Source: Candidatus Borrarchaeum weybense | GTDB lineage: Archaea; Asgardarchaeota; Sifarchaeia; Borrarchaeales; Borrarchaeaceae | DNA: 64,000 nt | Assembly: GCA_019057385.1 (NCBI GenBank) | Contig: JAHQJS010000006.1 | Location: 224,001 to 288,000 of the forward strand | Reading direction: 5' to 3' | Shown here: piece after piece, positions 7,892 through 51,639 of the stretch | How the letters are laid out: every line of letters begins with the position of its first letter | Numbering within the stretch: the stretch's first letter is position 1 | The notes under the pieces: generated by a model | Seen by the model: the letters and a program-made list of their open reading frames with translations, nothing else | Databases searched by the model: none | Told to the model about the DNA's origin: nothing | Program-made: the position numbers and the translations under genes

Positions 7892-8311
7892 TTATCCCTC
7901 TTGAAATTTCACTTTTAATACTTTTGTTAAATGCTCAATAATGACTTTTGTAGGAGTTCCAGGCCCAAATATGTTAGAAATGCCTATCTTGTTCAATTCA
8001 GGAATATCCTCCTTTGGAATAATTCCTCCAGCAAAAACGAGCAGTTGATCTGCCAGACCTTCTTTCTTTAGTAATTCCATTATTCTTGGAAATAACTGCA
8101 TATGTGCTCCAGAAAGGATACTGAGTCCAACTGCTTGTACATCTTCATGTAGGGCAGCTTGAACAATTTGTTCAGGTGTTTGACGGATGCCTGTGTAGAT
8201 GACCTCCATACCTGCATCTCTCAGTGCTCGAGCAATAATTTTTGCACCGCGGTCGTGGCCATCTAACCCTGGTTTTGCCACAAGAATTCTAAATCTAAAT
8301 GATGCTGACAT
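7892..8311 (-). CDS. Methylmalonyl-CoA mutase, cobalamin-binding (small) subunit
   Basis: [11 protein letters not shown] (DxHxxG), GLSILSGAH and GGIIP. Confidence 0.95.
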
Positions 8312-29516: not shown

Positions 29517-30801
29517 AGAATCACCTCAAGAATATTCACTATGAAGTGGGGATAGGAATTGTGTTCTAAGCGAAATTCGGGTTAAGATCGTACAATCTTC
29601 TTTTTTAGCGTTTTGCGTTAGACGTTTTCCGGTTTTTAGACAATGCAGGCTTAAACGATTTTTTAGATTACCACCGATATAACACAACCCTAAGGTTTTA
29701 TGAGTTACGAGTGTTCCTTTTTTCAGCCCAAGTGATAGCGTACCACCATATCTTCTTTTTATGCCCCCTTTCGCGAATTGAAAACGATGTAACTGTCTCC
29801 TGTGAAATTGTAGCGGTGTTATATAGTAAATACTTATTGTGGTCGGAAATTTTGCTCTGGTTGTAGCGGCTGCCAGTACCCAGGCATCTACACAATGAGT
29901 TTCAAAGATAGGTTGTGATTTGCTCTTCTTTTTGTGCAATCCAAAGTGTTGTCTTAACTGCTGTGTCTCGTTCCCTTGTGCTAGTATCACATTTAATTTA
30001 AGTTTTTGTAACTCGCTATAGAAATACCACTTGCCCACTTCTAATGGGCTAAAATTAGTGTTCCATCTCTTATGATGTCTCTTTTTTGTAACTGCTTGAA
30101 TATCCTCTACCACCACGTTTTGGATAGGAATGATAGTGCAGAGTTGTTTGATGATCCTTAGTTTTACATCCCATCGTGCTCTGGTGGATGGTGGTAACCT
30201 ACGTTGATTTGCTATTCGGTTTTTCTTGTTTTTTCTACGGCGAGTATTCCTTTTTCGGCGTGCCTTCCGCGCATTTCGTCTTTGTTCGACCTTTCTTTTC
30301 ACCCAAGTTATCGCTTCTGACATGATATTGACTACCGTATCACCTGTACCAACGATTGAGAACCCTTCGTACTTCGTACCTGGATCTACTCCAATGGCGA
30401 GCGGTTGTGTGACGGGTATGTGTGGATCGAATTGTAAATGAAGATAAAAGATGCCTATTTTATTCCGTTTCTTGATGGCCTTTCCTTGAGCAATGAGTTT
30501 TCGAGCTTTTGCAGGTCGACACGGCATTAATGGAGTGCCATTTTTACTAACGACAGGTATTCTACCGATTGCGGTCTCCCTGTCAGAGTCATGTTTCCCT
30601 TCGCCAGGGTATATAGGACATAGTCTAGTACTATTGTTGCTAGACTTGGAATTAAGTGATTCTTCCGAAGCGGGCTGGACTAGGGAGGCATCCAACCATT
30701 CTTGTAGTCCTATACACGTAGTTCCCGAAGAACTGAGGCTAGTCAACTCTTGCGTTGGTATCACCATCCCATGCCCTGTCCTCTTGGACAGGGTAGCTGA
30801 C
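29517..30801 (-). mobile_element. IS200/IS605-family non-autonomous OMEGA element (omegaRNA + IsrB, no TnpA)
   Basis: One end begins GTCAGCTACCCTGTCC-AAGA-GGACAGGG (hairpin). The other end, CAATTCC...ATTCTTGAGGTGATTCT, abuts ATGAA (TAM-like). Confidence 0.85.
29526..30569 (-). CDS. isrB: IsrB (RRXRR/PLMP-domain RNA-guided RuvC nickase, no HNH)
   Basis: GTPLMPCRPAKAR, RuvC-I GVDPG, Arg-rich bridge helix, LPPS, RuvC-II VVEDI and RuvC-III HCVDA; no HNH; core about 347 aa. Start uncertain (ATC after GGGAGA; the frame is open to 30815). Confidence 0.85.
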   Translation of the reverse strand: MGRIPVVSKNGTPLMPCRPAKARKLIAQGKAIKKRNKIGIFYLHLQFDPHIPVTQPLAIGVDPGTKYEGFSIVGTGDTVVNIMSEAITWVKRKVEQRRNARKARRKRNTRRRKNKKNRIANQRRLPPSTRARWDVKLRIIKQLCTIIPIQNVVVEDIQAVTKKRHHKRWNTNFSPLEVGKWYFYSELQKLKLNVILAQGNETQQLRQHFGLHKKKSKSQPIFETHCVDAWVLAAATTRAKFPTTISIYYITPLQFHRRQLHRFQFAKGGIKRRYGGTLSLGLKKGTLVTHKTLGLCYIGGNLKNRLSLHCLKTGKRLTQNAKKEDCTILTRISLRTQFLSPLHSEYS

Positions 30802-43101: not shown

Positions 43102-44007
43102 GTGAATTTGAAGATAGGAGTTGCAATTTCGTCATCAGGACAGACACTTCGTTGGCATGAATTGCAGTTAAAACGTGCATTGGATAAGAAAAATATCTCT
43201 ACAGTTTTCTTCCCAATAAAAGATACAATAGCAAATTATAGTAGATCCACTTTAGGTGTTCATTATAACAACTCTAATTTAATTAATGAACTAAGCGGCG
43301 TCCTAGTTAGGGGGCCAGGAATCGGCGTTTTGGAACAAATCTATTTTCGAATGAATGTGGTTAGACTCTTTGAGCACTCAGGTACTTATGTCATTAATTC
43401 GGCAAAAGCAATTGAGCAAGCAAGTGACAAATTATTTACGTCTATGGCTTTAGACGGGGCAAATATTTCAGTACCTCCAACCATGGTGGCACAGAAAATC
43501 GATGACGCAATGAATTTCTTTAAAAGCTATAAAGATATAGTAATAAAGCCGTTGTTTGGTTCAATGGGCCAGGGGATTACTCGCATAACAGATGAGGACA
43601 CAGCATATTTAATATTTGAAACTTTAGAGCAATTTGATTTGATCATTTATCTCCAGAAATTTATTCCACATGGAAATCGAGATATTAGAGCCTTGGTGAT
43701 AGGAGATCAAGTTATTGCAGCTATGTATCGAGTTGCAGAAAACAATGGTTGGAAAACGAATGTAAGTCTAGGAGCTACTCCTGAAGTGTGTGAGCTGAAT
43801 GAGAAGTTAAAAAAAATCTGCGTTAGAGCTGCTCAAATAGCAGGTTGCGAAATCGCAGGAATTGATATAATGATCCCCGAAAATGAACAGGATACTGATT
43901 ACTATCTACTTGAAGTAAATGCATGTCCTGCATGGGAAGGTCTGCAGAAAACTACAACATTAAACATAGCTGAAGTTATTGTAGATTATATAGCAACCAG
44001 AGTATAA
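43102..44007 (+). CDS. RimK-family ATP-grasp glutamate ligase (MptN/CofF-like), paralog 2
   Basis: GVLEQIYFR, IKPLFGSMGQG, QKFI, RDIR, WKTNVSLG and EVNACPAW. Confidence 0.85.
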   Translation: MNLKIGVAISSSGQTLRWHELQLKRALDKKNISTVFFPIKDTIANYSRSTLGVHYNNSNLINELSGVLVRGPGIGVLEQIYFRMNVVRLFEHSGTYVINSAKAIEQASDKLFTSMALDGANISVPPTMVAQKIDDAMNFFKSYKDIVIKPLFGSMGQGITRITDEDTAYLIFETLEQFDLIIYLQKFIPHGNRDIRALVIGDQVIAAMYRVAENNGWKTNVSLGATPEVCELNEKLKKICVRAAQIAGCEIAGIDIMIPENEQDTDYYLLEVNACPAWEGLQKTTTLNIAEVIVDYIATRV

Positions 44008-44035
44008 CGAAGAGCACATTGAAGGACAAATCTCG

Positions 44036-44671
44036 ATGAATACCACAATAGCGATTTTATCCGGAGGAAAATCTCATAGACTTAAGTCAGTTGTCCCAGA
44101 CAAAGGTTTACTATTGCTGAACAACAAACCAATGATTTTATGGGTGATAGAGGTTATTCAAGAACTCTCTAATAACATTCTAGTCATCGTAAGTTCAGAA
44201 AGTCAAAAAGAAAAATATCTTGAAGTTATAGAAAATCTTGCAGAAATGGTGATAGACAAAAGAGAGTCTATTAGGAGTTCCTTGCTGGGTGCACACGCAG
44301 CATTCATGCATGCAAGTGGGAAATACACCATTTTATTACCTAACGATACGCCTTTATTAAATCGAGATGCCTTACTCCTATTAATAGAATTATGTGAAGA
44401 CTATGATGTGGTATTACCCCGATGGCCAAACGGATTTATCGAGCCCTTACATGCCATTTACAGGACAGAAATTGCAAGAAAAAGATCAACGGAACTGATA
44501 CAGAAAAACCAATATAAACTAGATGGTCTGCTACAAAATGCAAACGTTTTGTATATCAATACTGAGATTTTCAAACAATTTGACCCTCAACTTAATATGT
44601 TTTTCAACGTAAATACCCCAGGTGATCTGAAGAAACTAAAAGGTTTAGTCAAAAAGCCTCAAAGGAGATAA
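44036..44671 (+). CDS. mobA: MobA-like nucleotidyltransferase
   Basis: ILSGGKSHR, DKGL, DTP, EPLHAIY and FNVNTPGDL. Confidence 0.8.
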   Translation: MNTTIAILSGGKSHRLKSVVPDKGLLLLNNKPMILWVIEVIQELSNNILVIVSSESQKEKYLEVIENLAEMVIDKRESIRSSLLGAHAAFMHASGKYTILLPNDTPLLNRDALLLLIELCEDYDVVLPRWPNGFIEPLHAIYRTEIARKRSTELIQKNQYKLDGLLQNANVLYINTEIFKQFDPQLNMFFNVNTPGDLKKLKGLVKKPQRR

Positions 44672-44677
44672 GATGAA

Positions 44678-45445
44678 TTGGAACTCCCGAAAATTGAAAT
44701 TTTTCCAATCCCCGGTATACCTATCATACGAGAAGGGGATAATACTGGAGAAATAATATGCCAATGTATAAACAACACGCGGATTGCTTTACAAGAAGAG
44801 GATATAATAGTTATAGCCCATGCGATAGTTTCAAGAGCGGAAGGAAGATTGGTAGATTTAAGGACGGTCATACCTTCTGAGTTTGCACAAACGATTTCAG
44901 ATCAATGCGATAAAGACCCAAGACATGTAGAAGTGATTCTCAGTCAAGCAAAGTCAATCGTACGGATGAAAGATGGAATATTAATAGTTGAATCAAAAAC
45001 ACCAGCAGGATGGGTAATGGCAAACGCAGGAGTAGATCAATCTAATTCTCTTGGAGAAAACTTTGCTCTTCTTTTACCAGAGAATCCAGATCGTTCCGCA
45101 GAAACAATTAGAAAAAAAATACAAGAAGAATATGGGGTTGAAGTAGCAGTAATTATTACAGATACTTTTGGCAGAGCACTGCGTTCAGCTGCAGTTAATG
45201 TAGCTATTGGGACATCAGGGATTAAACCGATCCTAGACTTAAGAGGAGTGAAAGATCTCTTCGGCTATACATTGACTAGCACTTGCGTTGCGATCGCAGA
45301 TGAACTCGCTTCAGCTGCAGAGTTAATTAGTGGACAATCAAATGAGGGGTTTCCTGTTATTGTAATTCGTGGATACAAATATCAAAAGGGAACAGAATCC
45401 GCATTGTTGCTTGCTAGGCCAAGAGAAAACGCTCTCTTTTGGTGA
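44678..45445 (+). CDS. cofE: Coenzyme F420-0:L-glutamate ligase
   Basis: GIPIIREGD, IVSRAEGR, ANAGVDQSN, TDTFGR, ADELASAA and PVIVIRG. Confidence 0.92.
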   Translation: MELPKIEIFPIPGIPIIREGDNTGEIICQCINNTRIALQEEDIIVIAHAIVSRAEGRLVDLRTVIPSEFAQTISDQCDKDPRHVEVILSQAKSIVRMKDGILIVESKTPAGWVMANAGVDQSNSLGENFALLLPENPDRSAETIRKKIQEEYGVEVAVIITDTFGRALRSAAVNVAIGTSGIKPILDLRGVKDLFGYTLTSTCVAIADELASAAELISGQSNEGFPVIVIRGYKYQKGTESALLLARPRENALFW

Positions 45446-45515: not shown

Positions 45516-47045
45516 ATGAAGGGTGACAACACCGAACTAAGAAAATGGCCTCCAGTTTCGGGTGATTGGGTACTAGGTAATCCAAACGCTCATATCGCTA
45601 TTATGACTTGCGGATCATATGAGTTGCCAAGTCATCTTGTAAACTCAAATAAAGATTATGTCGCAATTGCAGGTTTTTGTGAAGTTGAGAATGAGGGTAT
45701 AGCAAAAATATTACAAAATATATGCTCTAACGCATCTATTCGTGTACTAGTCGTCGCCGGCGAGAGAGTAAAAGGACATGAGCCCGGACAGAGTATTATT
45801 AGCCTCTATGAGAACGGCATTGATGATAATTTTACTATTATTGGAAGTAACGGTACCATACCCACGCTATTGCCCCGATATTTCAAAAATATAGATCCTT
45901 TCATATGGGTTTCACGCTTTCAACAGCAGATTGTGAATATTTTAGATTTGCGCAATGAAACAGATCTTAACAAAATTTCAGAAGAAATCGCTAAACTTGG
46001 AGAACAAGCATTTGAAACATTCCCCGATGAACCTCTCTTTCCTCCTGTGCAAAAGGTAAATTACGATTTTGGAACGTTGGCGAGTTCTGAATATGATATC
46101 ACTGAGATTGATGTAAAGAAAACTGAAAATATGCTTTTAGGAAATCCGCTCTTTTTTTCTAATACACAGCTACTGGTCTACGATATAGGTGGCACAAAGA
46201 TTGGAGGACAACGAGGAGAATACCCATGTGTCTTAGCTGGAACGATTTTTTATAAGGGTGATAAGACGGTGGAAAATTCCGATCGAGGATTATTTGACAA
46301 AAAACTAGCCGCTGATTACATTTATCAACAGGAACTAAAATCATTTGAATTTGAAATCCCATCAATGGTGCATGTCGTTGGTGAAACACCAATGGCTATT
46401 GAAAACTATCTATTGTTTGCTATAGAGCGTACAGACTCTCCGATTATAGTAGATTCCCCAGACGCTGCGACAAGGATTGCTGCAGTTCAGTTATCAAAAG
46501 ATATGGGGTTCGACAACCGAATAATTTACAATTCTATCTTTGTCCAAGATGAAGCGGAAATAAAGACGCTTACCGAAATTGGAGGCGTTGAATATGCAAT
46601 AATTTTACCATACGATCTCACTGTTGAAGAAAGGGTCGTAAAGACAAATGATCTCATTAATTTTGCAAAAGATGCTGTCAAGAAACCAATTTTGGATCCG
46701 GGTGTCCCTAAACTTGGTGAAGGGGGTTTTAGTGCACTCCATGCTGCATGGACCTTAAAAGATATTTACGGGTTCCCAATGGCTATTGGAATTCACAACT
46801 TACATTCAAGATTGCCAAAAAAGGAAAAAGGATTATCAGCAAAATCATTAGATTTTGGATTTAATTATGCGTTTCCATCAAATTTTGGGATAGATATTAA
46901 CATGTATGGACCGATAAAAAGGGCTGATAAAATCTTTCCAATGATTGCGGCTATTGAAACTATGATCGCTGATGAACTGATTAAAATCTACGATATATCA
47001 CCTAGACCTCCACATCCATATTATAAACTTGGTCTGGAAGGATGA
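45516..47045 (+). CDS. Soluble MtrA-MtrH fusion (corrinoid protein plus methyl-tetrahydropterin methyltransferase)
   Basis: MtrA part: WPPVSGD, ENEGIAK, SN..IR and VKGHEPGQS (Co-ligand His88). MtrH part: DIGGTKIGGQRGEYPCVLAGTIFY, IVDS, IYNSI, ILDPG, GIHN and MYGPI. No TM helix. Confidence 0.9.
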   Translation: MKGDNTELRKWPPVSGDWVLGNPNAHIAIMTCGSYELPSHLVNSNKDYVAIAGFCEVENEGIAKILQNICSNASIRVLVVAGERVKGHEPGQSIISLYENGIDDNFTIIGSNGTIPTLLPRYFKNIDPFIWVSRFQQQIVNILDLRNETDLNKISEEIAKLGEQAFETFPDEPLFPPVQKVNYDFGTLASSEYDITEIDVKKTENMLLGNPLFFSNTQLLVYDIGGTKIGGQRGEYPCVLAGTIFYKGDKTVENSDRGLFDKKLAADYIYQQELKSFEFEIPSMVHVVGETPMAIENYLLFAIERTDSPIIVDSPDAATRIAAVQLSKDMGFDNRIIYNSIFVQDEAEIKTLTEIGGVEYAIILPYDLTVEERVVKTNDLINFAKDAVKKPILDPGVPKLGEGGFSALHAAWTLKDIYGFPMAIGIHNLHSRLPKKEKGLSAKSLDFGFNYAFPSNFGIDINMYGPIKRADKIFPMIAAIETMIADELIKIYDISPRPPHPYYKLGLEG

Positions 47046-47048
47046 ATA

Positions 47049-48347
47049 GTGCTTAAATGTGCAGAAAACATTGAGGATCTCTATGGTCCGTATATCATTA
47101 GAGGAAGATCAATCGATTTAGTTTGGAGAACATATTTGTCAAAAATCATTGAACAAGGATTATCTGTAATCACAGAAGATAAACAACAGAAAACTAAGGA
47201 GACCTTATGTTGCATATCCCATTTGACTGACTGGAAAAGTGGGCGAATAGTTCCTAGAAATTATGTTGGATTATCACCAGAAATTATTAGAACACAATAC
47301 CTACCACAGTATCTAAGCGGCGAAAAGGGAGATCATACATACACCTACGGTTGGTGTGTAAGAAAAAGATTTGGATTTGACCAGACCAAACTGGCAGTCG
47401 AGCAATTAAAAACTTCAAGAACAGCATTCGCGCAACTTTGGAATCCTATAGAAGATCTAAAAAGTGCTAATCCACCTTGTGTTGACATAGCACTGTATTA
47501 CAATGATTTTTCAACAAAAATGCTCCACATGATTGCCTATATCCGTAGCAATGATATGGGACGTGCCCACTCTGATGATGTTGCAGGTCTCTACGAAACA
47601 TTTCTCCGTTATGACGGCGCCTTTAATTTATATGGAGCCCAGAAAGCTGCAGGTACATTAACAACCATTTCAGGTTCTGCTCATATATATGATACCTCAA
47701 TTCCTGAACTACAAGAAATTTTGGTTGGTTCTGTTACTTTAGCGAATGAAAATCAGCCTTTAAATACCAAAACTTTACCAGGGCCTATTTTGTTTCAATC
47801 AAGAACCTATCAAAGTTTCCTTTCAGAATTAGAAGTCAAATTCAAAAAATACTGCAGAGAAAATAATGGATCATTTGATCTCTTTTTTACTGTAAGATTT
47901 GATGATTTAGCTTCTTCTGATTTTGATTCGAGTCAAACATTAGAAAAATTAAATGACCAGATTAAAGATCCTTCGCTTGAAAGTACGATTCGAAATTATC
48001 AAGGAGTAACAGATACTGGGAATGCATCAAGTATTGATCAAATCGAGTTTATTGCAAAAAAACTTAGAAATGCACCGAGAAGTCGACGGATGGTTATTGC
48101 GCCTAATAATCCCTCCAAAAAAATCTATTCTTTGAATCCTATAATAGTTCAATTTCTTTATCGACTTGAAAAATTGTATACAATTGCATTATTCTCCAAT
48201 TACAGCCTTATAGATATTCCTAAGGCAGTAATTATGGTTAGAAATCTCCAAAATGAAGTCCTCAAAGGCACAGATATCGCTGCTGGACCTATAGTGTTTC
48301 TATTTATGCCTGGTACCCATAAAACCAAGCATTTCTCTCTTTCGTGA
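47049..48347 (+). CDS. Thymidylate-synthase-like protein with two tandem ThyA domains (one catalytic, one degenerate)
   Basis: N-domain: YTYG, DQ, WNP, PPC144, R166SND and AHIY. C-domain: DQIEFIAKKL...SRR and QF, without the Cys. Confidence 0.85.
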   Translation: MLKCAENIEDLYGPYIIRGRSIDLVWRTYLSKIIEQGLSVITEDKQQKTKETLCCISHLTDWKSGRIVPRNYVGLSPEIIRTQYLPQYLSGEKGDHTYTYGWCVRKRFGFDQTKLAVEQLKTSRTAFAQLWNPIEDLKSANPPCVDIALYYNDFSTKMLHMIAYIRSNDMGRAHSDDVAGLYETFLRYDGAFNLYGAQKAAGTLTTISGSAHIYDTSIPELQEILVGSVTLANENQPLNTKTLPGPILFQSRTYQSFLSELEVKFKKYCRENNGSFDLFFTVRFDDLASSDFDSSQTLEKLNDQIKDPSLESTIRNYQGVTDTGNASSIDQIEFIAKKLRNAPRSRRMVIAPNNPSKKIYSLNPIIVQFLYRLEKLYTIALFSNYSLIDIPKAVIMVRNLQNEVLKGTDIAAGPIVFLFMPGTHKTKHFSLS

Positions 48348-48397: not shown

Positions 48398-49561
48398 TCA
48401 TCCTTTGAGAAACAAAATCTTAAGCTCATTTTCGTGGAATTTAGCCTTTTCGATCTCCTTGTCCCGAATAATTGTGGGGAGATATAAAACACGCTTGTAT
48501 TTGCCTACACGAATAACCAGTGTGTTACGATCGTGCTCGATTGATAATTCACCTTTTTCGCTGAAAGGCAGTTTTATAACCAGTTCATAGTTTCCATTGT
48601 CTTGTTGCACAAGTTGAAACGGTCTTTCTGTAGTTAGAGTTTCAGTCGGATCTTTATCATGATAGAGCGCATCTGCCACTTTTCCAAGAAGCGTGGTACC
48701 TATGATTTCTTCCTGGAACAGTGGAACTGGAAGAATTGGAAGTGGATCAAATGCTTCATCGATCTGATTCATATAATCGGCTTGCTGTTGTTTCCAGCGC
48801 ACAAAAAATGGATCACTAACCTCCTCTGGAAGTAATCTATTGACTACAACTCCGTCAACGAGAAAACCAAACAAGTTCATAAAGGTTAATGTGCGCATCG
48901 ATTCTAGTAATACCATTTTTTCTGGATTAACCACCAACTTAACCGTTGTGACCGATGGATCTACAAGCAGTTCTCGAACTTCCATTGCTTCTTCAATCAA
49001 AGAATCTGTAACTTTTTGCACATCTGCACCAGGTAATGAGACTGGTAAAAGCATCCGAAGTGGCTTTAATTCCTCAAGTATTATTTTTTCGAGCTCCACC
49101 AGATTTCGACCAAGTGAACCGATGACCTCTGGAAAACTCATTAAACGAAGTGTATGTCCTGTAGGCGCCGTATCCAATACTATAACATCGTACTCGTTTA
49201 TGTACTGACGGATAGTTAAAAGACTAAATAACTCATCCATTCCAGGAATTACTACCATCTCACTCGCTAAAGCTTGGTCAAACCCTCTCGCAGTAAATAA
49301 TTGTGTAAGATACTTGAGTACAATCTCCCATTTTTCCTCCATCAGGCGCTGGGAATCAATTTCCAGACCATATAAATTCTCGCTTATCTTTTTCGGGGAG
49401 TGACCACCTAAATTAATACCTATTGCGTCACTTAAACTATGAGCTGGATCTGTGCTGAGCATTAAAGTTTTTTTTCCATTCTCTGCACACCGTAAACCTG
49501 TAGCTGCCGACACAGTTGTCTTTCCGGTGCCACCTTTTCCTGTAAACACTAAAATTCGCAT
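48398..49561 (-). CDS. ArsA-family ATPase with C-terminal HSP20-like domain (Get3d-type)
   Basis: TGKGGTGKTT, STDPAHSL, PGMDEL, DTAPTG and NPEKMV; C-terminal LVIRVGKYKRVLYLP...LKILF. Confidence 0.88.
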   Translation of the reverse strand: MRILVFTGKGGTGKTTVSAATGLRCAENGKKTLMLSTDPAHSLSDAIGINLGGHSPKKISENLYGLEIDSQRLMEEKWEIVLKYLTQLFTARGFDQALASEMVVIPGMDELFSLLTIRQYINEYDVIVLDTAPTGHTLRLMSFPEVIGSLGRNLVELEKIILEELKPLRMLLPVSLPGADVQKVTDSLIEEAMEVRELLVDPSVTTVKLVVNPEKMVLLESMRTLTFMNLFGFLVDGVVVNRLLPEEVSDPFFVRWKQQQADYMNQIDEAFDPLPILPVPLFQEEIIGTTLLGKVADALYHDKDPTETLTTERPFQLVQQDNGNYELVIKLPFSEKGELSIEHDRNTLVIRVGKYKRVLYLPTIIRDKEIEKAKFHENELKILFLKG

Positions 49562-49669: not shown

Positions 49670-50281
49670 TTATTCAACACTTATCTCAAAAGATTTCGAA
49701 TTGTCGCCAGAATTCTTTTTTGGGTTACTTAGAGTATTGTTGACAGCCTCTAACTCACTTTCTAGAATTTTTTTATACTGCATGAGCACCTCTACAAGCT
49801 GATCTGGCTTTACAATTTGAATTAACCATTCTCTTAATTGTTTACCTCTATCTTCCATAAGCTGTATAACATCTTTTAGTCTGTTTTCTACATATGTTTG
49901 GTAAGGGCTAAAATATTCGTCGATAAAACTAACAAATTTGCCTAGTAGGTCGATTTCTTGATCAAAACGTTCTGCAATAATCTTTAGAACACCTTTTCCC
50001 TTGTCCGTTAATTGATACATCTTTTTTGTGCCACCCTCTCCACTTTCAGTGATATTCTGAATTAACTTATCATTTTCTAATCTGGAGAGTGTAGGATATA
50101 TTGTGCCGCTTTTTGGCTCCCATGCGCCACCAAACTTCCCTTTTAGATCTTGTATAATATCTGAACCTGCCATCGGCTTTTCTTGTAGCAGCACTAATAT
50201 TAAAAATTCAACTGGGCTCACTTTTCGTTCAAGTACATTTCTGAAAAGCCCTCTACCTAATCCTCGACCAAGCCAAAACAT
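49670..50281 (-). CDS. PadR-family transcriptional regulator
   Basis: LILVLL...PM.G, WEPKSGTIYPTLSRLE and KKMYQLTDKG. Confidence 0.9.
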   Translation of the reverse strand: MFWLGRGLGRGLFRNVLERKVSPVEFLILVLLQEKPMAGSDIIQDLKGKFGGAWEPKSGTIYPTLSRLENDKLIQNITESGEGGTKKMYQLTDKGKGVLKIIAERFDQEIDLLGKFVSFIDEYFSPYQTYVENRLKDVIQLMEDRGKQLREWLIQIVKPDQLVEVLMQYKKILESELEAVNNTLSNPKKNSGDNSKSFEISVE

Positions 50282-51009: not shown

Positions 51010-51639
51010 TCACTTTTTATGATGTTTCCCAAAAAAATTGATAGAAATGTCTTGAATGATCTCCTGTGATTTTTGTATAGACTGAGTTGTATCAATAACT
51101 GAGTATTCTTCTTCTTTCGCCCTTTCAAGGAAATTATCACGTACTTTGCTAAGAAACTCTCTATTTTCAAATGATTCTAGTTTTTCTCTTCTATTTAGGC
51201 GCGCCATAGCATCCTTTGGACTTATATCAAGGATAAAAGTAATGTCGGGCCAAACTATGCCTTTGTTAATAGCCTTGATCCACTCTCTTGTTAATTCTTG
51301 CGCGGATTGATATGCTAATGAAGATTCAATATATCGAGTTGTAATTACGATTTGTCCTTGTTTAAGGGCGGGCTCTATAACTTCCTTCACATGTTGTATT
51401 CTATCTGCAGCAAATAATAGTGCAAACATCTCAGGCTGCTTAATTTCGAACTTGTCTTGCAATGCTTCTTTTATTAAGCGGCCAACGGCACCCTTAGTAG
51501 GTTCTCTAGTAAGAATTACACTAAATCCTTGTTCAACCAAAAACTCATATAGAAGTCTACTATGAGTAGACGTTCCAGAACCGTCGATTCCTTCAAATGC
51601 GATCAGAAAACCTCTCTGATTTGATTGTGGGTTCGTCAT
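51010..51639 (-). CDS. tmk: Thymidylate (dTMP) kinase
   Basis: IAFEGIDGSGTST, TREP, LLFAADR, RYIESSLAYQ and PD. Confidence 0.92.
   Translation of the reverse strand: MTNPQSNQRGFLIAFEGIDGSGTSTHSRLLYEFLVEQGFSVILTREPTKGAVGRLIKEALQDKFEIKQPEMFALLFAADRIQHVKEVIEPALKQGQIVITTRYIESSLAYQSAQELTREWIKAINKGIVWPDITFILDISPKDAMARLNRREKLESFENREFLSKVRDNFLERAKEEEYSVIDTTQSIQKSQEIIQDISINFFGKHHKK

Follow-up and report, generated by a model that had tools for sequence, protein, structure and literature searches.

Thymidylate synthase (TS) of the ThyA type is the textbook case of an obligate homodimer, in which each phosphate site receives two arginines from the opposite subunit, and its half-of-the-sites behaviour is debated. 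The short archaeal form of ThyA (~200-220 amino acids (aa), TIGR03283/PF00303, e.g. M. jannaschii MJ0757) is a single-domain protein, presumably a homodimer, that carries (S/T)RR and Asn177 in each subunit. A study of Asgard ThyA places the gene in most Asgard genomes; the terms 'fusion', 'pseudo' and MtrH do not occur in it, and 'duplicat' occurs once (PMC9931769). A 'novel MtrAH fusion' of Atabey-, Frey-, Sif- and Jordarchaeia has been described as a possible coenzyme M (CoM) methyltransferase, or with the fate of the methyl group left open, and neither of the two papers mentions a ThyA-like neighbour or thymidylate beside it (PMC11291895, PMC9723677). Here we analyse a stretch of 64,000 nucleotides (nt) from Candidatus Borrarchaeum weybense (contig JAHQJS010000006.1, positions 224,001 to 288,000; the window), in which a gene of this MtrAH type is followed directly by a ThyA-like gene whose product is predicted to contain two ThyA-fold domains in a single chain. 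A literature search found no publication on such a two-domain ThyA-MtrAH module.

The open reading frame (ORF) of the ThyA-like gene begins 3 nt past the stop of the upstream MtrA-MtrH gene, and its start position is sound, as homologues open with MFKCAENIEDLYGPY at the same point. Its layout is as follows.

47049..48347, + strand: whole ORF, two-domain ThyA-fold protein of 432 aa (start codon GTG, coordinates include the stop codon; Pfam match to PF00303 with 49.8 bits, cut-off 24.3; AlphaFold2 model pLDDT 89.2, pTM 0.91)
47082..47726, + strand: Domain 1 (D1), aa 12-226, ThyA domain of the short archaeal form, equipped for catalysis (TIGR03283 aa 15-219, E 7e-33; VIA Z 19-22 over ~200 aa to TS-family chains; 53% mean identity among divergent homologues)
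47478..47480, + strand: codon of Cys144, counterpart of the catalytic nucleophile (E. coli Cys146); invariant in alignment A1 (see below) and aligned with the PPC/APC motif of thymidylate synthases in the Protein Data Bank (PDB)
47577..47579, + strand: codon of Asp177, at the position of E. coli Asn177, the determinant of dUMP versus dCMP preference; gapless alignment to the Asn of '...PFNIA...' in PDB thymidylate synthases
47727..47777, + strand: interdomain linker, aa 227-243 (lower pLDDT, 78-81; 31% mean identity)
47778..48326, + strand: Domain 2 (D2), aa 244-426, predicted ThyA fold without catalytic residues (modelled alone pLDDT 86; Foldseek E ~2e-8; VIA Z 12-15.4; 31% mean identity)
48084..48089, + strand: codons of Arg346-Arg347, counterpart of the Arg-Arg pair of the partner subunit (E. 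coli R126'/R127'); S345-R346-R347 invariant and aligned with '...SRR/DRR...' of PDB thymidylate synthases and of the classical NCBIfam ThyA models

The two domains appear to divide the parts of one ThyA active site between them, and we consider it probable that the protein is a single-chain, pseudo-dimeric TS-type C5-methyltransferase with one active site that works together with MtrAH. A first-pass annotation had already proposed an asymmetric fused dimer with one active site, whose dead half might be free to dock a partner such as MtrAH. That interpretation was largely right but incomplete: the ThyA fold of the C-terminal half, the complementary and conserved losses and the link to MtrAH all stand, while the residue Asp177, the position of the gene as the only one of TS type in the genome and its strict coupling to MtrAH had been overlooked. 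The motifs on which it was built are found at the residues given for them (GPYIIRGRS with G13-P14, GPILFQSRT with G245-P246, PPC with C144, R166-S167-N168-D169 and A211-H212-I213-Y214), as are S123-R124-T125 in D1, where ThyA has SRR, and DQIEFIAKKLRNAPRSRR with R346/R347 in D2.

The division of residues is conserved throughout the family. The catalytic-residue set of ThyA (equivalents of E. coli C146, R166, S167, D169, Y94, H207 and Y209) is complete in D1, where C144, R166, S167, D169, Y100, H212 and Y214 are invariant in an alignment of 26 homologues of 37-94% identity (alignment A1). None of this set is present in D2, which has Ile365 at the Cys position and the Phe382/Tyr385 region at RSxD, and from which HxY is gone. 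The Arg-Arg pair shows the reverse distribution, as the D1 site that should hold it is variable (SRT, GKN, GRS, REQ and others, never Arg-Arg) and S345-R346-R347 of D2 is invariant in all of the aligned homologues. The complementary loss of catalytic residues from D2 and of Arg-Arg from D1, first noticed in the single protein, is therefore a property of the whole set, and at most one complete site per chain is predicted from sequence. Named relatives come from Candidatus Borrarchaeum yapensis (94% identity), Sifarchaeum (47%) and Jord-, Frey- and Atabeyarchaeia (37-45%). A quick unrooted tree has a branch (SH-aLRT 87) that sets the D1s of all two-domain proteins apart from the short forms. Two distant proteins, P0071 and P0085 (~415 aa, 25% identity), which belong to a different lineage of archaea, display the same residue split between D1 and D2. 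They are encoded at L010:6001-7251 and L012:142-1389 beside ribosomal protein genes and have no Pfam match; at position 177 one has Asp and the other, P0085, Asn. A further sequence, P0068 (160 aa), was considered as a stand-alone D2-like split intermediate and rejected, since it comes from a 1.9-kb contig, has upstream in-frame stops and probably represents a fragment or a misassembly.

The internal duplication behind this architecture is weakly supported by sequence. Compared by BLASTP the two halves give E 0.29, and comparison of their profiles by hhalign gives E 0.03 to 0.006, the alignment at E 0.03 being colinear over ~150 columns; D1 and D2 are ~16% identical, and the GP...R match from which a duplication had first been suggested is insignificant by itself. 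Because the comparisons of the halves are too weak, structure was needed to settle the matter. Separate matches to known thymidylate synthases are also found: classical ThyA NCBIfam models match aa 323-365 (the RR segment, DQI...SRR...NP) with E 7e-8 to 2e-6, apart from the D1 match, and the profile of the family matches PDB thymidylate synthases twice, once in D1 and once in the RR segment of D2, the latter aligned to '...IDQL...NPxxRR...WNP'. When D2 was modelled alone (residues 240-432, 193 residues), the Foldseek matches listed were thymidylate synthases, dCMP-acting relatives and one TS-scaffold design (E ~2e-8). An independent VIA scan of 48,161 chains with the same model returned seven TS-superfamily chains at Z 12.1-15.4 over 167-178 residues; only members of the TS superfamily exceeded Z 8, and the best unrelated chain reached Z 5.5. 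In the whole-chain model the secondary-structure elements of aa 246-424 repeat the order of those of aa 15-225, and alignment of this model to PDB chains covers D1 only. Together these results show that the duplication is real, and the C-terminal half has the fold that the first-pass annotation expected of it. Both halves accordingly belong to the ThyA superfamily, D1 by its PF00303 match (aa 94-225 of the protein) and its fold, and D2 by its fold, with a sequence match limited to the RR segment. The score of the methanogen-type model TIGR03283, 113.8 bits, lies below its equivalog cut-off of 174.55.

The conserved residues of D2 are clustered at aa 322-372, which comprise a TDxG-IDQ helix, the SRR loop and two strands, TPNNP and NP..QFL.R; by homology this block would correspond to the central sheet at the ThyA dimer interface. 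In addition, the pTM of 0.91 for 432 aa implies a fixed and confidently predicted arrangement of D1 and D2, because such a value would be out of reach if two domains of ~200 aa were placed uncertainly. Fold, conservation and pTM together suggest that R346/R347 of D2 complete the phosphate site of D1. In the proposed mechanism, D1 would activate C5 of the pyrimidine by means of the nucleophile Cys144 together with Arg166/Ser167/Asp169, Tyr100 and His212/Tyr214, and D2, a catalytically dead ThyA fold, would pack on D1 like a second subunit and supply the Arg-Arg loop. The two domains would then form one composite nucleotide-phosphate site, so that each chain would have one active site instead of two. 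The faster evolution of D2 (31% mean identity among divergent pairs, against 53% for D1) would also be expected if D2 were a structural remnant or a regulatory or docking module, with D1 dimerising with D1 as in ordinary ThyA and R346/R347 not serving the D1 site. We regard this as very improbable, since a D1-D1 dimer would have no Arg-Arg for either of its sites, the pair having been lost from D1 family-wide, and the sole strictly invariant block of D2 consists of the SRR loop and its adjoining strands. The recurrence of the complementary pattern at 25% identity in another lineage and the tight D1-D2 packing to which the pTM points also argue against it.

A pseudo-dimeric protein of this kind differs from both described forms of ThyA. 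D1 matches the model of the short archaeal ThyA from end to end (aa 15-219), and both have a truncated fold that lacks the C-terminal tail closing over folate, and both carry the Cys, RSxD, YTYG and SAHxY motifs; in the two-domain protein, however, RR has been lost from D1, Asp is found at position 177 and a second, dead ThyA domain carrying RR has been added. Classical ThyA (E. coli, L. casei, human) has the same fold as D1 (Z ~19.5, root mean square deviation 2.5 Å over ~200 aa) and shares with the two-domain protein the Cys, the R166/S167/D169 and H207/Y209 equivalents and the principle that arginines are provided by the other ThyA-fold unit. Unlike in classical ThyA, the units are fused and diverged, one of two possible sites has been kept, Asn177 is exchanged for Asp, the last ~40 residues of classical ThyA, which close over folate, are missing, and a corrinoid protein takes the place of dihydrofolate reductase (DHFR) as genetic partner.

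This partner is encoded immediately upstream and belongs to the type of the MtrAH fusion described from other Asgard archaea.

45516..47045, + strand: soluble MtrA-MtrH fusion of 509 aa (MtrA aa 9-175, MtrH aa 220-486; Pfam MtrA 116.9 bits, MtrH 187 bits)
45777..45779, + strand: codon of MtrA-domain His88 in GERVKGHEPGQ, candidate corrinoid lower axial ligand (His84 of methanogen MtrA); motif kept in four Asgard MtrAH proteins

We surveyed 400 Asgard species genomes. Two-domain ThyA is encoded in 18 of them, from 5 families, and 18/18 have MtrAH immediately upstream of it in the same orientation, with a spacing between a 4-nt overlap (-4) and +43 nt, while the other neighbours differ between families. 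The full-length MtrAH fusion is found in exactly the same 18 of 400 genomes, the other matches being MtrH-only paralogues of 30-39% identity, and none of the 12 single-domain Asgard ThyA loci has MtrAH in its flanks. A functional link between the ThyA-like protein and MtrAH, which had been no more than suggested at first, is therefore strongly supported by adjacency and co-occurrence in 18/18 genomes, and we infer that MtrAH is also a physical partner of two-domain ThyA. In many Asgard genomes the MtrH-only paralogue matches (e.g. G000:C6:451326-452210, - strand) often contain one in-frame TAG in a six-frame search, a pattern that could arise from recoded stop codons or pyrrolysine, which have been reported for some Asgard lineages, or from reading across the ends of genes.

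The MtrA domain of the neighbour has the sequence motifs of a His-on, cobalamin-binding MtrA, for which a lower-ligand His84, the Glu of a His-Glu linkage and a GAIPF-type meander have been described (PMC4915002). GERVKGHEPGQ (His88), CEVENEGI and GSNGTIP are present and are conserved in four Asgard MtrAH proteins, with the consensus GE(R/K)VxGHEPGQ, CExENxGI and GTIP. As in the Mtr complex of methanogens, an MtrA fold with the His motif is combined with an MtrH pterin-methyltransferase domain; unlike in that complex, the product has no membrane anchor and is not accompanied by MtrB-G. The Ca. Borrarchaeum weybense genome (4.18 Mb, 8 contigs, 100% complete) was searched for MtrE, which was not found, so that the neighbour is not part of a canonical Mtr complex; the MtrA domain beside the ThyA-like gene is the only one in this genome. 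Use of cobamides by the organism is plausible because its genome encodes CobS and has 18 matches to B12-binding domains. One of these 18 (PF02310) lies inside the window at 7949-8290 on the - strand (G000:C6:231949-232290).

The ThyA-like gene is also the only one of its kind in the organism. A single PF00303 match is found in the complete genome, and ThyX was not found there or in any of the 18 two-domain genomes, three of which are single-contig. Since this is the only gene of ThyA or ThyX type, the 5-methyl group of thymidylate is most likely supplied by the two-domain protein. DHFR was not found in the Ca. Borrarchaeum weybense genome either, in a search that did not extend to dihydromethanopterin reductases. 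A gene for thymidylate kinase (PF02223, E 1e-51) is found on the opposite strand, 2.7 kb further downstream (51010-51639, -). The interval holds a gene for a PadR-family regulator (49670-50281, -) and, nearer to the ThyA-like gene, one for an ArsA/Get3-type ATPase whose C-terminal domain is HSP20-like (48398-49561, -).

Eight positions after RSND, in a gapless alignment with PDB enzymes, the protein has Asp177 where ThyA has Asn (E. coli Asn177). All 34 two-domain homologues from Asgard archaea share this Asp, whereas nearly all of the retrieved relatives, single-domain short ThyAs as well as ThyA domains fused to MtrA, have Asn. Exchange of Asn177 for Asp switches TS from dUMP toward dCMP, and natural dCMP- or CMP-acting enzymes have Asp there (PMC8670742; PMC13326640). 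Position 177 of D1 therefore agrees with the dCMP/CMP hydroxymethylase and methylase branch and not with TS, and 'thymidylate synthase' is unsafe as a label for the chemistry. T4 dCMP hydroxymethylase, the CMP hydroxymethylase MilA and phage AfhB all share Asp at 177 with D1, and AfhB and MilA are the top structural neighbours of D1 in the VIA scan (Z 22 and Z 20, compared with Z 19.5 for TS), though their similar size may explain the higher Z. At the position of E. coli L143, where an acidic residue lets in water for hydroxymethylation, the protein has Asn141, and Njord- and Atabey-type homologues have Asp; polar or acidic residues are also common here in short archaeal ThyA. These cytosine-nucleotide enzymes are single-domain, homo-oligomeric proteins of phages or secondary metabolism, unlike the sole TS-type gene of a cellular genome described here. 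A flavin-dependent hydroxylase (the branch of AfhB and RB69 gp48) was also considered and rejected, as its signature, D169N, which marks the flavin-dependent 5-hydroxy-dCMP synthases (PMC13326640), is absent: flavin hydroxylases have Asn at 169, and Asp169 is invariant in D1.

These observations raise the alternative that the substrate is a cytosine nucleotide (dCMP, CMP or a triphosphate precursor) and the product a 5-methyl- or 5-hydroxymethyl-cytosine nucleotide, from which thymidylate would be made by later deamination or which would serve another purpose. The invariance of Asp177 against the Asn of nearly all relatives, the preference for dCMP that this exchange confers, the structural neighbours of D1 and the Asn or Asp at the L143 equivalent all agree with it, and a ComEB-like dCMP deaminase is encoded in the Ca. 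Borrarchaeum weybense genome. We nevertheless consider it rather unlikely. As the sole ThyA/ThyX-type gene in 18 genomes, the two-domain protein has to carry dTMP synthesis; Dcd/dUTPase-family proteins, which supply dUMP, are encoded in 18/18 of these genomes, and CDA-type dCMP deaminase in only 6/18, with two single-contig genomes among those that lack it. The arguments from the structural neighbours and from the L143 position are weakened by the possible effect of size on Z and by the general frequency of polar or acidic residues at that position in short archaeal ThyA, and the distant two-domain protein P0085 has Asn at 177. A route from dCMP through 5-methyl-dCMP to dTMP by CDA-type dCMP deaminase was rejected as a general account of Asp177 on the same distribution of the deaminase. 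dUMP thus remains the more likely substrate.

With respect to the source of the methyl group, the option we find most attractive is a corrinoid relay. The co-inheritance of the two genes is observed, and the coupling chemistry that it suggests would be as follows. MtrH would move the methyl group from methyl-tetrahydromethanopterin (CH3-H4MPT) to Co(I) of the MtrA domain, and the C5 carbanion activated by Cys144 would attack CH3-Co(III) and take the methyl group in a polar transfer, as in methionine synthase or TsrM. No dihydropterin would be made, so that recycling of the DHFR type would not be needed, and the dead D2 and the missing C-terminal lid might leave space for docking of the corrinoid domain. 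MtrAH and pseudo-dimeric ThyA would then constitute a thymidylate synthase of a third kind, one that depends on a corrinoid, a proposal that we advance tentatively and regard as somewhat doubtful. A change of cofactor in the TS fold has a precedent in the flavin-dependent dCMP hydroxylases (PDB 9iqc), of which AfhB is one; it shows the fold working with a cofactor other than folate (PMC13326640). A literature search found no paper combining MtrA with thymidylate synthase and methanopterin, or thymidylate synthase with a corrinoid and methyl-H4MPT.

An association of ThyA with an MtrA fold is also found in fusions of an MtrA-like domain, ThyA and PterinBD-DUF4346 from cyanobacteria and others, whose ThyA domains are the closest to D1 outside its own family (~30-39% identity). 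The association takes the form of one protein in these fusions and of neighbouring genes in Ca. Borrarchaeum weybense. The fusions have one ThyA domain, with Asn177, no MtrH, and an MtrA-like domain without the His and Glu motifs, and many are without RR. They form a large family of proteins of ~450-650 aa (P0036-P0056, P0060 and others), one cluster of which comprises 475 member sequences, some of them from named cyanobacteria; 'AASAV' or 'SARAV' occurs in many of them where the Arg-Arg pair of ThyA stood, and P0040 has an extra dCMP-deaminase domain. Our literature search found no paper on DUF4346.

Several points weigh against the reading that we prefer, in its parts. Asp177 is the classical signature of dCMP- or CMP-acting ThyA homologues, and dUMP may not be the substrate (PMC8670742). 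The 18 two-domain genomes come from 5 families only and are not independent, and no MtrAH gene stands next to those for P0071 and P0085, the distant proteins with two domains. A fusion of MtrAH to ThyA (Rosetta-stone evidence) was not found among proteins of 757-2160 aa, which is weak negative evidence. D1 keeps Asp169 and the classical aromatic positions for pterin binding (Y84, Y88), and a conventional methylene-pterin mechanism without a corrinoid would be possible. Finally, since the MtrA-like domain of the DUF4346 fusions lacks the His and Glu ligand motifs, the old association of ThyA with MtrA does not itself imply corrinoid chemistry, and corrinoid binding by these domains was discarded as support for a methyl relay.

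The last two points bear on the alternative that the same pseudo-dimer performs conventional chemistry, in which D1 would use 5,10-methylene-H4MPT as donor of both the one-carbon (C1) unit and the hydride, and MtrAH would be adjacent for another reason, such as balancing or channelling of the H4MPT C1 pool, or regulation. We consider this a serious possibility, short of an even chance. It agrees with the retention of Asp169, of Tyr100 (the Tyr94 equivalent) and of aromatics at the pterin-contact positions of D1, with the lack of the corrinoid His in the MtrA-like domains fused to related ThyA domains, and with an MptN-like ligase and CofE encoded upstream, which would make the local operon one of C1 and redox cofactors in general. 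The exact 18/18 co-occurrence and adjacency with MtrAH amid otherwise unrelated neighbours rather favours a direct partnership, and no DHFR that could recycle dihydropterin was found, dihydromethanopterin reductases not having been searched for. Krone et al. (Eur J Biochem, 1994) are also said to have observed that purified short ThyA of Methanobacterium formed no dTMP with methylene-H4folate or methylene-H4MPT, which we count against methylene-H4MPT as donor.

The upstream genes just mentioned belong to a group of three tightly spaced cofactor-tailoring genes on the same strand (43102-45445, +), a context that is not conserved in other Asgard families. One encodes a RimK-type ligase whose closest match is MptN, the H4MPT:alpha-L-glutamate ligase, at 267.7 bits against a cut-off of 350, which it does not reach. 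The other two encode CofE (F420-0:gamma-glutamyl ligase), which scores above its cut-off, and a MobA-like NTP transferase that has a weak CofC-like match. Elsewhere in the window, a match to the HEARO RNA (Rfam RF02033) at 30588-30801 on the - strand extends over the full model length with 83.2 bits against a gathering score of 83, which suggests a mobile element of the IscB/OMEGA type.

A natural single-chain ThyA with one surviving composite site would provide a clean natural experiment on the half-of-the-sites question, and it would exemplify subfunctionalisation following duplication and fusion. Several Asgard classes (Borr-, Sif-, Jord-, Frey-, Njord- and Atabeyarchaeia) have no candidate for thymidylate synthesis other than the two-domain protein, and its combination of a cytosine-type specificity residue with no DHFR partner makes the DNA-precursor metabolism of these relatives of eukaryotes puzzling. 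The exact co-inheritance of MtrAH with two-domain ThyA points to methylation of a nucleotide rather than of CoM. The corrinoid route, if true, would identify the methyl acceptor of the Asgard MtrAH fusion, and in two-domain ThyA we may be seeing one half of a new route to thymidylate that depends on a corrinoid.

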